This document shows, piece by piece, positions 6,801-25,109 of a stretch of 64,000 bases of DNA; the stretch's first letter is position 1; each line of letters opens with the position of its first letter. The translations under genes and the position numbers were made by a program. The notes under the pieces were generated by a model that saw nothing but the letters and a program-made list of their open reading frames with translations, did no database searches and was not told the origin of the DNA. The stretch is from Escherichia phage ST0, in the sequence record MF044457; one strand, 5' to 3'.

Positions 6801-7973
6801 ATGTCTGATTTAAAATCTCGTCTGATTAAAGCTTCTACTTCTAAAATGACTGCAGACTTGACTAAGTCTAAGCTGTTTAATAATCGTGATGAAGTCCCTA
6901 CTCGTATTCCGATGTTGAATATTGCATTAGGTGGTGCACTGAATGCCGGGTTGCAATCAGGCTTAACTATTTTTGCTGCTCCTTCTAAACACTTTAAAAC
7001 GTTGTTTGGACTGACCATGGTTGCAGCATATATGAAGAAATATAAAGATGCAATCTGTTTGTTCTATGATTCAGAATTTGGTGCTTCAGAATCTTATTTT
7101 CGTTCAATGGGTGTTGATTTAGACCGTGTAGTTCATACTCCGATTCAATCTGTCGAACAACTTAAAGTTGATATGACTAATCAGCTTGACGCTATTGAAC
7201 GCGGTGATAAAGTTATTATCTTTATCGATTCAATCGGTAATACTGCATCTAAGAAAGAAACTGAAGATGCATTGAACGAGAAAGTTGTAGGTGATATGTC
7301 TCGTGCTAAGGCACTTAAATCTCTGTTCCGCATTGTGACTCCTTATCTGACTATTAAAGATATTCCATGTGTTGCAATCAACCATACAGCAATGGAAATC
7401 GGTGGATTGTATCCTAAAGAGATTATGGGTGGTGGTACAGGTATTCTTTACTCTGCTAACACTGTATTCTTTATCTCTAAACGTCAGGTTAAAGAAGGTA
7501 CAGAATTGACCGGTTATGACTTCACGTTGAAAGCAGAAAAATCTCGCACCGTTAAAGAAAAATCTACTTTCCCAATCACGGTTAATTTTGATGGCGGTAT
7601 TGACCCATTCAGTGGCTTGTTAGAAATGGCAACTGAAATTGGTTTTGTGGTTAAGCCTAAAGCTGGGTGGTATGCTCGTGAATTTCTTGACGAAGAAACA
7701 GGTGAAATGATTCGTGAAGAAAAATCATGGCGTGCTAAAGCTACTGATTGTGTAGAATTCTGGGGGCCGTTGTTTAAACACAAACCTTTCCGAGATGCAA
7801 TTGAAACTAAATATAAACTAGGTGCTATCTCTTCTATTAAAGAAGTTGATGACGCTGTTAACGACCTTATTAATTGCAAAGCAACAACTAAAGTTCCGGT
7901 TAAAACTTCTGATGCTCCGTCTGCAGCAGATATAGAAAACGACCTTGACGAAATGGAAGATTTCGATGAATAA
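6801..7973 (+). CDS. uvsX: UvsX RecA-like recombinase
   Basis: 390 aa; near-collinear with T4 UvsX as I recall it (MSDLKSRLIKASTSK..., GWYAREFLDEETGEMIREEKSWRAK). Confidence 0.95.
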   Translation: MSDLKSRLIKASTSKMTADLTKSKLFNNRDEVPTRIPMLNIALGGALNAGLQSGLTIFAAPSKHFKTLFGLTMVAAYMKKYKDAICLFYDSEFGASESYFRSMGVDLDRVVHTPIQSVEQLKVDMTNQLDAIERGDKVIIFIDSIGNTASKKETEDALNEKVVGDMSRAKALKSLFRIVTPYLTIKDIPCVAINHTAMEIGGLYPKEIMGGGTGILYSANTVFFISKRQVKEGTELTGYDFTLKAEKSRTVKEKSTFPITVNFDGGIDPFSGLLEMATEIGFVVKPKAGWYAREFLDEETGEMIREEKSWRAKATDCVEFWGPLFKHKPFRDAIETKYKLGAISSIKEVDDAVNDLINCKATTKVPVKTSDAPSAADIENDLDEMEDFDE

Positions 7974-21626: not shown

Positions 21627-21656
21627 GTTTACAACCAAGGACGGTTGGAGTATAAT
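21627..21656 (+). promoter_or_regulatory. early promoter
   Basis: GTTTAC, about 18 bp, TATAAT. Confidence 0.55.
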
Positions 21657-21686
21657 CTTTCTATCTTAACCAAACAGGAAAACATT

Positions 21687-22181
21687 ATGAATATCAATAC
21701 TACGGCTACTTACATCCTGAAAGACGAAAAACAAATCAACTGGTACGGTGCTTCAGTGCGAGCTTATGAAAAGTTTTGTGAAATTTTAGGCGCCACTCAA
21801 GGTAATAGTTTCACTATTGTTAACTTCATTAAACAAGCTGAAGGCCCTTGGTTATTCTTAGAAATTAAAAATTCATATGGTACAATTTCTACTACCGCCC
21901 TTCCAAGCACCGACTTTGAACTCTTGATTGAAGAAGCACCTGTTAAAGATGGTCTCCACTTTGATATGGATATCGTTTGTATGTACGGTACTCTGATTAA
22001 GCCTATTGAGCCTACTGATTTATTGTGTAAATATGTTTCAATTCGACGCCCATTCGCTGGTCCAGTAAATGGATGGGTAACTGACCAATGGATTGAAGAT
22101 GGTGTTGAACTTCTGAACGTTGTTCATGCAGGTGATTTTAGTGTAGTTCCGCGTAGTGCTGTGGTTAATATCCTTAATTAA
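21687..22181 (+). CDS. hypothetical protein, tandem paralog family member 1
   Basis: ORF-track TTG start lies inside the promoter; ATG at 21687. C-terminus GWVTDQWIEDGVELLNVVHAGDFSVVP is shared with the next two genes. Confidence 0.5.
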   Translation: MNINTTATYILKDEKQINWYGASVRAYEKFCEILGATQGNSFTIVNFIKQAEGPWLFLEIKNSYGTISTTALPSTDFELLIEEAPVKDGLHFDMDIVCMYGTLIKPIEPTDLLCKYVSIRRPFAGPVNGWVTDQWIEDGVELLNVVHAGDFSVVPRSAVVNILN

Positions 22182-22183
22182 TG

Positions 22184-22213
22184 TTGTACATCCAAGGATG
22201 GATGGAGTATAGT
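22184..22213 (+). promoter_or_regulatory. early promoter
   Basis: TTGTAC, about 18 bp, TATAGT. Confidence 0.45.
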
Positions 22214-22243
22214 GAATTCAATTTAAACAAAGAGAGAGAAATT

Positions 22244-22774
22244 ATGATTACTATTGGTGAAATCCTTCGTGTATCTCCTGCTTCTCGTTCTAAAGCTGCA
22301 GGTCGTCTGGTTGAAGTAGCAGGGCTTCGTACTAACGGCATGGGACGTGTTAAAGAAGTTAAAGTTCGAATCATGCCCAGTTTTGGCGGACAAGATGCCC
22401 AGTATGCTTACGTAAGTCCTAAATTCCTGGAAAAACATATACGAGTCCAATTTGCTTCAAGCGAAGAAGTTGCACCTGCACACTTTGCTTCTGTTGAAGA
22501 AGTTGAATCACGTGATGGATACGTATGTGAATCCGCTGAGCCTAATGTACAGTTCAAATGGGCCCTTTGCAAAGGCGTTGAATTTATAACCGATAAAGAA
22601 TTTGATTACATCGACGAATACGGTTATCCAAGCACAACTGATATCATGTGTGGCTTCATTAGTGACCAATGGGTTGAAGATGGTGAAAAGCTATACAATA
22701 TCGTATTCTTAGGTGACTTCCGAGTTGTTAAAGAATCTGAAATCACTCGCTATGCTTCTCCTCGTAAAGCTTAA
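22244..22774 (+). CDS. hypothetical protein, tandem paralog family member 2
   Basis: Start at ATG 22244 (MITIGEILRVSPASRSKAAGRLVEV); C-terminus GFISDQWVEDGEKLYNIVFLGDFRVV. Confidence 0.5.
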   Translation: MITIGEILRVSPASRSKAAGRLVEVAGLRTNGMGRVKEVKVRIMPSFGGQDAQYAYVSPKFLEKHIRVQFASSEEVAPAHFASVEEVESRDGYVCESAEPNVQFKWALCKGVEFITDKEFDYIDEYGYPSTTDIMCGFISDQWVEDGEKLYNIVFLGDFRVVKESEITRYASPRKA

Positions 22775-22783
22775 GGAATTATT

Positions 22784-23203
22784 ATGAATATTGTAAATCT
22801 CTCTACTGGTGATTACGTATATGTATCTGTTGCTTCTCGCTCTAAAGTTGCCGGGAAGTTGGTTGAAGTTCTTTATGTGAGTGATCCGGTTTTTGGACGT
22901 AACGAAGTTAAAGTTCGTGACGCCGATGGTAACATTGGTTATGTTAAAAGCCAATTCATTGAACCAGAAGAACGTGCGTTCAAATGGAAACTGTGCAGGT
23001 CTGTTTTAGTTGTAAAAGACCATGAATTTACTATTGCTTCTGCAACTGACGGGTCTCCATGGACAACGAATCAAGTTGCTGGTTTTATTTCGGACCGTTG
23101 GGTAGAAGATGGTGTTAAGCTTTATAACATCGTTTTCGCTGGACAGTTCATGGTAGTTCCTGAGTTCCAAATCAAAAAATATTGTCCAGCATCTTTTGCA
23201 TAA
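22784..23203 (+). CDS. hypothetical protein, tandem paralog family member 3
   Basis: 139 aa; N-terminus VSVASRSKVAGKLVEV and C-terminus GFISDRWVEDGVKLYNIVFAGQFMVV. Confidence 0.5.
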   Translation: MNIVNLSTGDYVYVSVASRSKVAGKLVEVLYVSDPVFGRNEVKVRDADGNIGYVKSQFIEPEERAFKWKLCRSVLVVKDHEFTIASATDGSPWTTNQVAGFISDRWVEDGVKLYNIVFAGQFMVVPEFQIKKYCPASFA

Positions 23204-23207
23204 AGTT

Positions 23208-23236
23208 GTTTACTTCTCCTCCGGTTTTGATATTAT
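23208..23236 (+). promoter_or_regulatory. early promoter
   Basis: GTTTAC, 17 bp, TATTAT. Confidence 0.55.
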
Positions 23237-23262: not shown

Positions 23263-23787
23263 ATGTTAGTTTACCGCGTAGAACGTAGTTTTTGTACTCA
23301 ACGTGAATCATTACCAGGAATTGCTATCAAAGACGGTAAAGCCGTCAGAATTTGGGAAACCTCTTGGAATAAAGAACCTCGTTCGCCATACGGTTGGTCG
23401 GGCACCGACAACTCTGAAGAAACATGGGAGTTCCTTGATAAACATGGAATAATCTCAGGTAACTTCTACCATCACGGCGACAACTACAATGTCCCTAATC
23501 GTCCTACAGTAAATGAAGACAAACTCCTTGAACAAAATATCTTAAGATACTATAGAATTGAGCACACATTTGAATTGAGTGAAGATTGGGCTCAAGGGTT
23601 CTATTTTGGATTTGAAAGTGTTGACGCGGTTTATGCATGGTTTGATGACCAGGTGGATGTTGAACTCTTGAAAGCTAAAGGATACTACATCGCGGTCTAT
23701 GAAGCACCTGATTTCATCCTCGGAAGTTGTCAATTAATGTTTAGACGTTCATTGGCAGAACAAGTTGATTTTATTTTGCTAAAATGA
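23263..23787 (+). CDS. hypothetical protein
   Basis: ORF track 174 aa; RBS AGAGGAGAA. Confidence 0.5.
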   Translation: MLVYRVERSFCTQRESLPGIAIKDGKAVRIWETSWNKEPRSPYGWSGTDNSEETWEFLDKHGIISGNFYHHGDNYNVPNRPTVNEDKLLEQNILRYYRIEHTFELSEDWAQGFYFGFESVDAVYAWFDDQVDVELLKAKGYYIAVYEAPDFILGSCQLMFRRSLAEQVDFILLK

Positions 23788-23844: not shown

Positions 23845-24072
23845 ATGAAACGTCAAATCATTAAAAACGTAACTACAGATTCAAACATCGATGAGTTTGA
23901 AGATGTTCTGTTTAATCCTGATTTAGTTGTTGTACAGAAAAACTGGACCGAATTTTTATGCTACACCGAAGTGGTTTACGTTTACGAAAAACTCGGTGAT
24001 GAAATGCCTATCTATGGTATCTTCCGTGAAATCACTGAAAATGGTACAACTTATTGGAAGGAAACTTACTAA
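23845..24072 (+). CDS. hypothetical small protein
   Basis: ORF-track ATG lies in the promoter -10 region; start moved to ATG at 23845 after AGAGGAGAA. Confidence 0.4.
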
Positions 24073-24482
24073 TGGCTAATAAATTCCGCGTTAACTCATG
24101 GTACCAATTTATAGATAAACGTGCCCAAGAAGAGTTTATTAAAGACCACACTGATAATGGGATTTATGCACGACGTCTTGGCATGGAACCATTTAAAGTA
24201 TTAGATGTTGACCATCTTGGACGTCCTACTAAAATTGTGACATCTACCGGCACGGTTGGATACGCAACAGGCGGTGATATCCTTGATGAAAACTTTATCT
24301 GGCTCTCCACGAATGAAGCAGAGTTTTTTGATGAAGTGGGAAATCCATATCAAGCGTCCGAAGAGCAAGATTCTGATGAACTTGACGAATTGTCTGAATT
24401 TCCGGTGATGACGATTACTATCGAAAATAACGACCAGGCATGGTCTTTGTATCAAATGTTGAAAGCACATTTTAAGGAATAA
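24072..24482 (+). CDS. hypothetical acidic protein
   Basis: Start moved to ATG at 24072 ([10 protein letters not shown]...), overlapping the upstream stop. Confidence 0.45.
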
Positions 24483-24666: not shown

Positions 24667-25092
24667 ATGGCTTTTAAAGGTTTTGAAGTTGGTAAGAAAT
24701 ATCGTATTATCAAAGGACAGGAAGATAATTTCTTGAGAATTCTTAATACGACTGGTAAACGTCTTAATACTAATCTGCATACTACTTTATTGTCCAAAGA
24801 TTTTATTGTGGAAGAGATGATTGGTTACGGCGTTTCGGTGATTGCTGTAGAAGCCGTAGGCGATTATGGCCGAACTATTCATAGTATGCAAGGTGATATT
24901 CTGCTTTATGGTGCAGAATTTAAATTCTTTGAAGAAGTTCCGGAACCAGATACAGCTGTCGATTTCAAAAAAGGCTCTATAGAATTTGTTGATGGTTCGG
25001 TGATCGTATCAGGCGATGTGGTCATTACAGTTAAAAGTGAACAAGGGCGTTTGGCTGCAATTGATGCACTTCAGAAAATTAAATTTAAATAA
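24667..25092 (+). CDS. hypothetical protein
   Basis: ORF track 141 aa; followed directly by a terminator. Confidence 0.5.
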   Translation: MAFKGFEVGKKYRIIKGQEDNFLRILNTTGKRLNTNLHTTLLSKDFIVEEMIGYGVSVIAVEAVGDYGRTIHSMQGDILLYGAEFKFFEEVPEPDTAVDFKKGSIEFVDGSVIVSGDVVITVKSEQGRLAAIDALQKIKFK

Positions 25093-25109
25093 GGGCTTCG
25101 GCCCTTTTT
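25093..25109 (+). terminator. UUCG-tetraloop terminator
   Basis: GGGC-TTCG-GCCC followed by TTTTT. Confidence 0.75.

Follow-up and report, generated by a model that had tools for sequence, protein, structure and literature searches.

Three motB-family genes with a common C-terminal module

The window analysed here, a 64,000-nucleotide (nt) stretch of Escherichia phage ST0 (record MF044457), contains three consecutive plus-strand genes at 21687-23203 whose products share a C-terminal module. Gene 1 (21687-22181, 164 amino acids (aa)) is a MotB.1 ortholog, with homologues that begin MNINTTATY; gene 2 (22244-22774, 176 aa) is a MotB ortholog; and gene 3 (22784-23203, 139 aa) is a second, compact MotB paralog. 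All three belong to the known MotB/MotB.1 family of T4-like phages, which comprises categories of homologues with a common C-terminal domain (CTD) and differing N-terminal domains (NTDs) (Patterson-West et al. 2021, PMC7827196). The arrangement has already been described for the genus: RB69, a Mosigvirus, has two motB genes and one motB.1 gene (PMC7827196).

The original prediction, made from the letters of this stretch, that the three genes end in one conserved module is borne out, and the strings it quoted are all present. In BLASTP, gene 2 is 37% identical to gene 3 from end to end (E-value 2e-28), 17 of 29 tail residues are identical between genes 1 and 3 (E-value 1e-10), and genes 1 and 2 match with an E-value of 4e-10. 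This likeness lies far above chance and involves the full CTD rather than a few residues. Homology extends beyond the last 27 residues to the entire domain of 57-74 residues (gene 1 aa 108-164, nt 22008-22178; gene 2 aa 104-176, nt 22553-22771; gene 3 aa 66-139, nt 22979-23200). In the alignment, 'PTDLLCKxVxIRRPF' of gene 1 pairs with 'FKWxLCxxVxF' of genes 2 and 3, the MotB-type CTD of the latter two carries a 12-17-residue insertion relative to gene 1, and the core reads G-[WFY]-[VI]-[ST]-D-[QR]-W-[VI]-E-x-G-x-[EK]-L-[LY]-N-[VI]-V. The signature of a MotB-type CTD (FKW...G[FWY]I[ST]DQWVExG.KLYN.VF) is also present. A tblastn search of the window in six frames with the 36-aa module returned three copies only (E-values 1e-9 to 1e-23); no fourth copy, for example a 29-aa peptide of the RB69 type, occurs in the window, where the next match has an E-value of 0.25.

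The module, described in the prediction as unfamiliar, can be recognised as the C-terminal half of the Pfam profile motB (PF17613; gathering threshold 25 bits). Gene 2 scores 122.6 bits against this profile (E-value 1.8e-35), gene 3 76.0 bits and gene 1 35.5 bits, the last through aa 88-159 only. Among the PHROG families, phrog_1671 ('MotB-like transcriptional regulator') fits genes 2 and 3 (E-values 7.7e-62 and 7.2e-51), and phrog_2333 fits gene 1 along its entire length (E-value 3.6e-81). Against the T4 proteins, gene 1 is 37% identical to MotB.1 (E-value 3e-26), while genes 2 and 3 are 41% and 38% identical to MotB (E-values 5e-41 and 2e-25).

The predicted N-terminal likeness of genes 2 and 3 is equally real, as ASRSK[AV]AG[RK]LVEV is found in both. 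The broader motif of the KOW-like NTD, VS..SRSKxAG+LVEV, occurs in these two genes and is invariant across a 28-sequence alignment; its absence from gene 1 identifies this gene as MotB.1 rather than MotB. Gene 1 instead combines a non-KOW NTD with the ELLNVVHAG..SVVPRS tail that distinguishes the MotB.1 subfamily, Category 2/4 of Patterson-West et al. 2021, among whose members 26 alignment columns are invariant. Paralogy of the three genes therefore stands, but not over the full length of gene 1, which has the CTD alone in common with its neighbours and carries another NTD. The three genes thus reflect a shuffling of domains and not plain tandem duplication. Between genes 2 and 3 the distance is about as great as between either of them and T4 MotB, so gene 3 is no recent tandem copy: either the duplication is old or the second copy was acquired.

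The MotB CTD family is narrow: when 1.84 billion representative proteins were searched with a profile of the CTD alone, just 32 clusters were retrieved at an E-value of at most 1e-3. Its distant true members (P0241, P0247 and P0248) join a textbook KOW signature to the CTD. A deeper origin of the module in long proteins (P0239, P0242, P0245 and P0246; 5-7 matches) was considered and discarded as motif-level coincidence; these proteins carry Ig-like and 'GYATEQWVxxKGYLT' fibre-type repeats that cover just 17-42 profile positions. Since long proteins can be matched through short repeats of the GYATEQWV or Ig-like kind, the 8-10-residue core can by itself recur by chance. For the module in the window, an origin in chance or low complexity is next to inconceivable, given pairwise E-values of the order of 1e-10 to 2e-28, Pfam scores above the cut-off and hundreds of conserved homologues.

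Domain architecture and exchange between paralogs

Each of the three proteins is predicted to consist of two small beta-barrels, the family-defining CTD standing behind a swappable NTD that would be KOW-like with the SRSK motif in MotB and LSm/SH3-like in MotB.1. The AlphaFold2 model of gene 3 (mean predicted local distance difference test score (pLDDT) 85.9) contains two barrels, with strands at residues 11-14, 26-32, 41-45, 51-55 and 59-61 in the NTD (aa 1-62) and at 73-85, 92-108, 111-118, 121-126 and 130-133 in the CTD, and with a short helical turn ahead of the last strand in both; no linker separates the two domains. The gene 1 model (mean pLDDT 78.9) places an LSm/SH3-like barrel with one helix at aa 1-82 of the NTD (aa 1-85), followed by a low-confidence linker (aa 87-106) and CTD strands at 116-119, 127-137, 140-147 and 150-155. 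In gene 2, a basic KOW-like NTD (aa 1-62) is joined to the CTD by an acidic, variable linker (aa 63-103).

These models point to a tandem SH3-like architecture of the KOW/Tudor type rather than to KOW plus OB. The predicted MotB CTD does not conform to the OB fold of cold-shock DNA-binding domains (SCOPe b.40.4.5), which is defined by a Greek-key barrel of five strands, as a rule with a helix separating strands 3 and 4, and by structural similarity to CSD, S1 or the eIF5A C-domain. No match to the Pfam KOW profile (PF00467) or to a Pfam Tudor family was obtained, gene 2 had no meaningful phmmer match among the solved structures in PDB (best E-value 1), and an hhalign comparison of the NTD and CTD of MotB, which bears on an internal barrel duplication, was not significant. 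In BFVD, structural relatives occur in T4-like phages only, some of them named 'KOW domain-containing'. NusG/Spt5 KOW domains, the 53BP1 tandem Tudor and the KIN17 tandem SH3-like domain share 9-22% identity, which reflects a resemblance of fold and not family membership.

The modular organisation is evident among homologues, in which a MotB.1-type CTD with 74-86% identity to the gene 1 CTD follows several NTD types. These include a single LSm-like domain (143-169 aa), an LSm-like domain preceded by an N-terminal peptide (~180 aa), two LSm-like domains (~250 aa) and a KOW-like domain (P0179 and P0185). Natural hybrids also exist: P0035 joins a gene 2-type NTD (82% identity) to a gene 3-type CTD (95% identity), P0031 has its breakpoint within the module, and P0243 (43 aa) fuses the start of MotB.2 to the tail of MotB.1. 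In their module cores, genes 1 and 2 agree at 22 of 23 nt (22082-22104 and 22663-22685), and this pair is a likely crossover site. Together, the hybrids and the DNA likeness indicate that the paralogs act as recombination substrates, and such recombination probably explains the differences in copy number among T2, T4 and Mosigviruses.

The linkers are a further source of variation. A linear motif, [FI]-D-[MF]-D-[IV]-x-x-[MT]-Y-G-T-L-[IV]-K-P-[LI]-E, recurs at the junctions or N-termini of MotB.1-type proteins. In gene 1 it reads D-M-D-I-x-x-M-Y-G-T-L-I-K-P at about aa 100-114 (~21984-22028), in the region of the low-confidence linker; it also stands at the N-termini of P0141, P0153, P0169 and P0144 and is absent from the 143-aa T4-type MotB.1. 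Gene 1 has an additional 20-residue linker segment (DMDIVCMYGTLIKP) that the T4-type proteins of 143-145 aa lack. The linker of gene 2 contains an imperfect 33-nt tandem repeat (22448-22505) encoding QFASSEEVAPAH/FASVEEVESRD. Orthologs of gene 2 are 151, 154, 165 or 176 aa long and differ in this region, so the length of the linker is polymorphic.

The shortened T4 MotB.1 and the likely function of the locus

The T4 reference motB.1 gene (NC_000866.4/AF158101.6) encodes only 119 aa and ends '...GWVTDQWIGRWR' inside the module, where the next frame goes on as 'EDGVELLNVVHAGEYSVVPRSAVVAILN'. Alignment of the DNA reveals one extra G in the T4 reference (ATTGGAAG vs ATT-GAAG) on the minus strand at NC_000866.4 ~7261-7334 (L004 3262-3335), the part comparable to 22068-22140 of the window. 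Through this 1-nt insertion the 119-aa protein lacks the final 28 residues of the CTD, which is conserved. An intact 143-aa MotB.1 is encoded in one piece in 13 other records (several T4, T4T, RB55 and RB59), and two pieces are needed only for the two reference records. MT984581 has an annotated 432-nt coding sequence for MotB.1 (QPI17238, 143 aa), and the intact form (P0115) is present on 256 contigs.

Kim et al. 2025 used a MotB.1 protein of 13.8 kDa and NC_000866.4 coordinates (PMC12152347), which indicates that the protein tested lacked the last 28 barrel residues. Published MotB.1 experiments thus appear to have relied on the short form, and negative results obtained with it may need repeating. 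In other respects the locus is the published family again, in a phage ~98% identical to annotated genomes. What is added here, namely the extent of the module over the full CTD, the narrowness of the family, the recombination among paralogs and the T4 motB.1 insertion, is modest and mainly for T4 specialists.

T4 MotB, an abundant early protein, reportedly compacts DNA (Son et al. 2021, NAR, cited at second hand). MotB is an early protein, toxic to Escherichia coli if expressed alone, that binds modified and unmodified DNA with no specificity detected; H-NS, like StpA, copurifies with it, and burst size is raised two-fold (PMC6070864). MotB also alters the H-NS footprint, and 75 host genes are up, about one third of them in the H-NS regulon (PMC7827196).

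The locus is very probably a Mosigvirus-type motB region, with motB.1 followed by two diverged motB genes, all of them presumably early genes. Like T4 MotB, with which they align along their whole length, genes 2 and 3 have a KOW-like NTD with the SRSK motif and the motif of the CTD, lie between dexA and cef and have early-type promoter signals. The product of gene 2 would, by homology with T4 MotB, most likely be made early and in abundance and coat the DNA of both host and phage with no sequence preference. Such coating may compact the DNA and shift H-NS on it, so that H-NS silencing is relieved and burst size rises modestly. Gene 3 and gene 1 probably encode diverged partners or modulators, not redundant copies. 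The prediction of a host-interaction role agrees with the T4 MotB literature (PMC6070864 and PMC7827196), and its term 'anti-defence' applies loosely, as the countering of xenogeneic silencing by H-NS. Relief of H-NS silencing, the outcome attributed to MotB, is also brought about by T7 gp5.5 and T4 Arn. These proteins, however, are unrelated to MotB in sequence and fold and bind H-NS directly, whereas MotB associates with H-NS only when DNA is present. Direct docking of H-NS by the CTD was set aside as a candidate mechanism, as no DNA-independent MotB/H-NS interaction was found by the authors of the T4 work.

The distribution of charge suggests how the two domains may divide this task. Gene 2 as a whole has a net charge of -5 (isoelectric point (pI) 5.2), with a strongly basic NTD (+6, pI 10.6) and an acidic CTD (-5, pI about 4.5). 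Gene 1 is acidic both as a whole (-8, pI about 4.65) and in its CTD (-3, pI about 4.65), and gene 3 is neutral (net charge 0, pI 6.6), with an NTD that is not basic. At its invariant positions the CTD has no K or R but D, Q, W, E, G and N besides aromatic or aliphatic residues. From this pattern, the basic KOW-like NTD is the likelier surface, and probably the main part, to contact DNA, and the acidic, aromatic CTD the likelier assembly or partner-binding barrel, which would be common to all three proteins. Seen alongside the exchange of NTDs in front of a CTD that hardly varies, the charge pattern makes the CTD worth considering as such a module, instead of assuming it to be a DNA binder.

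Several points weigh against a MotB-like function for the locus. T4 MotB is basic (+6, pI 9.2) and gene 2 as a whole acidic, so the two cannot be taken to bind DNA with equal affinity. The DNA-binding function has been shown for T4 MotB and is inferred by homology for gene 2. DNA-independent contact between MotB and H-NS was sought and not detected, and the T4 authors allow DNA binding by either domain and assign the CTD an OB fold (PMC7827196). In addition, T4 motB.1 mutants have no phenotype (PMC12152347).

A more elaborate version, which we regard as rather doubtful, takes the CTD as an acidic, aromatic SH3/Tudor-like barrel for self-, inter-paralog or partner binding, through which MotB, the second MotB and MotB.1 would co-assemble in a mixed phage 'chromatin' coat. 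The NTDs would then contact nucleic acid (KOW: DNA; LSm-like: RNA or single strands), and a role of MotB.1 would perhaps have been missed through the truncated T4 sequence. A division of labour, with the KOW-type genes 2 and 3 acting on DNA, the LSm-like gene 1 on RNA and the CTD joining them or guiding them to a common site, seems similarly tentative. Kim et al. 2025 (PMC12152347) describe the MotB.1 NTD as a barrel of the LSm-like kind, with GoF and Frd.2 as relatives. However, MotB.1 had little effect in an RNA reporter assay and its deletion gave no phenotype, although the protein tested was the 119-aa form. An hhalign comparison of the gene 1 NTD and family with the second of two GoF-like proteins encoded in the window was likewise not significant (probability 0.7%).

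The near-invariance of the CTD also bears on the proposal that the three genes form an anti-defence arsenal, in which diversified inhibitors, each directed at a different host immune system, share the tail as a scaffold. The genes do lie in a dispensable, plastic early region, their copy number varies among T2, T4 and the window phage, and silencing by H-NS may count as a form of defence against foreign DNA. Yet the module, with the 26 invariant columns of its MotB.1 type, is conserved rather than hypervariable or diversifying, unlike an arms-race arsenal. Moreover, the known biochemistry of the family is non-specific DNA binding and not inhibition of defence proteins. MotB left expression of the CRISPR locus unchanged, and no defence or anti-defence family was matched in Pfam or PHROGs (PADLOC was not searched). 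An anti-defence arsenal is thus improbable.

Still less credible are sequence-specific transcription regulators, as the historical name 'modifier of transcription' and the 'transcriptional regulator' annotations of the closest genomes imply. In T4, motB knockdown left early and middle transcripts unaffected and mildly impaired only a few late genes, and, as noted above, no sequence specificity was detected (PMC6070864); for T4 MotB this reading is already largely refuted. A MotB-like, non-specific coating of DNA remains the preferred reading of the locus.

Gene surroundings and expression signals

Judged by gene content, the three genes sit in the equivalent of the early region of T4. They are flanked by dda, dexA, a motB.2-like gene, cef, goF-like genes, 39.2 and the topoisomerase gene gp39, and the order dda-dexA-...-cef-goF-39.2-gp39 agrees with T4 and T2. 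Members of the MotB family are expected between dexA and cef in the early part of a Tevenvirinae genome, and this is where the three genes lie. Over 3.2 kb, the DNA of the locus has 97.8% identity to that of Escherichia phage 308Ecol101PP (Mosigvirus), where all three coding sequences are annotated 'transcription regulator MotB'; in another Mosigvirus annotation, the four genes from gene 1 to the motB.2-like gene are called 'MotB.1', 'motB', 'hypothetical' and 'MotB.2'. In total, the locus matches 529 phage records, 139 of them with at least 80% coverage.

Between dexA and cef, the related phages differ in both gene order and copy number. The order here is dexA-motB.1-motB-motB'-motB.2-cef, compared with dexA-motB.2-motB.1-motB-cef in T4 and dexA-motB-(hypothetical)-cef in T2. 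T4 has one gene of each kind, and T2 has one motB and lacks motB.1 and motB.2, whereas the window phage has two motB copies. Compared with T4 MotB, gene 2 has a longer, acidic linker with the 33-nt repeat, and gene 3 differs in the absence of a linker and of a basic NTD. Gene 1 resembles T4 MotB.1 in its NTD family (phrog_2333) and in its CTD (PTDLLCK..GWVTDQWIEDGVELLNVVHAGxFSVVPRSAV). RB69 shares the set of one motB.1 and two motB genes, and its MotB is 76% identical to gene 2; it differs in having a 29-aa CTD peptide, whereas the window contains no CTD-only peptide.

Three plus-strand promoter-like sites lie in the spacers of the locus. The site in the dexA/gene 1 spacer, (G)TTTACA-17-TATAAT at 21628-21656, fits 11 of 12 consensus positions and is the best of the 6 kb scanned; TGTACA-17-TATAGT (22185-22213) precedes gene 2, and GTTTAC...TATTAT (23209-23236) precedes the motB.2-like gene. 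The scan found 16 sites in total against 17.9 in shuffles, that is, no enrichment, and the case for these sites therefore rests on their spacer positions and on the GTTTAC motif of T4 early promoters. Read in this way, the candidate promoters are consistent with early transcription of the locus. The two stretches of 64 nt that precede genes 1 and 2 (21630-21693 and 22187-22250), which include the -10 element, the 5' untranslated region and the start codon, are 72% identical; either this leader was copied together with its gene, or it is an early-promoter cassette that has been conserved.

For gene 2, an upstream in-frame ATG at 22181 overlaps the stop codon of gene 1 (TAATG) and would extend the protein to 197 aa, and some gene callers adopt this longer start (P0001 and P0035). 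The start at 22244 is favoured because it matches the conserved MotB start (MI[TI]IGE) and because the promoter-like site lies inside the extension. Gene 3 starts 9 nt past the stop codon of gene 2, behind an AAGGA Shine-Dalgarno sequence, and the two genes are thus probably co-transcribed and translationally coupled.

The motB.2-like neighbour (23263-23787, plus strand, 174 aa) does not carry the module. It is 34% identical to T4 MotB.2 (E-value 5e-16) and belongs to phrog_1106, and it has no Pfam match. Further downstream, a second paralog pair consists of two goF-like genes (24054-24482 and 24667-25092), both in phrog_622, that flank gene 39.2. T4 has a single goF gene, and the first GoF-like protein of the window is 72% identical to T4 GoF. 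The second shows a weak PHROG cross-match to the MotB.1 family phrog_2333 (E-value 1.3e-3). Between the second goF-like gene and gp39, a hairpin resembling a bidirectional terminator (AAGGGCTTCGGCCCTT followed by a T-run) is located at 25091-25106.

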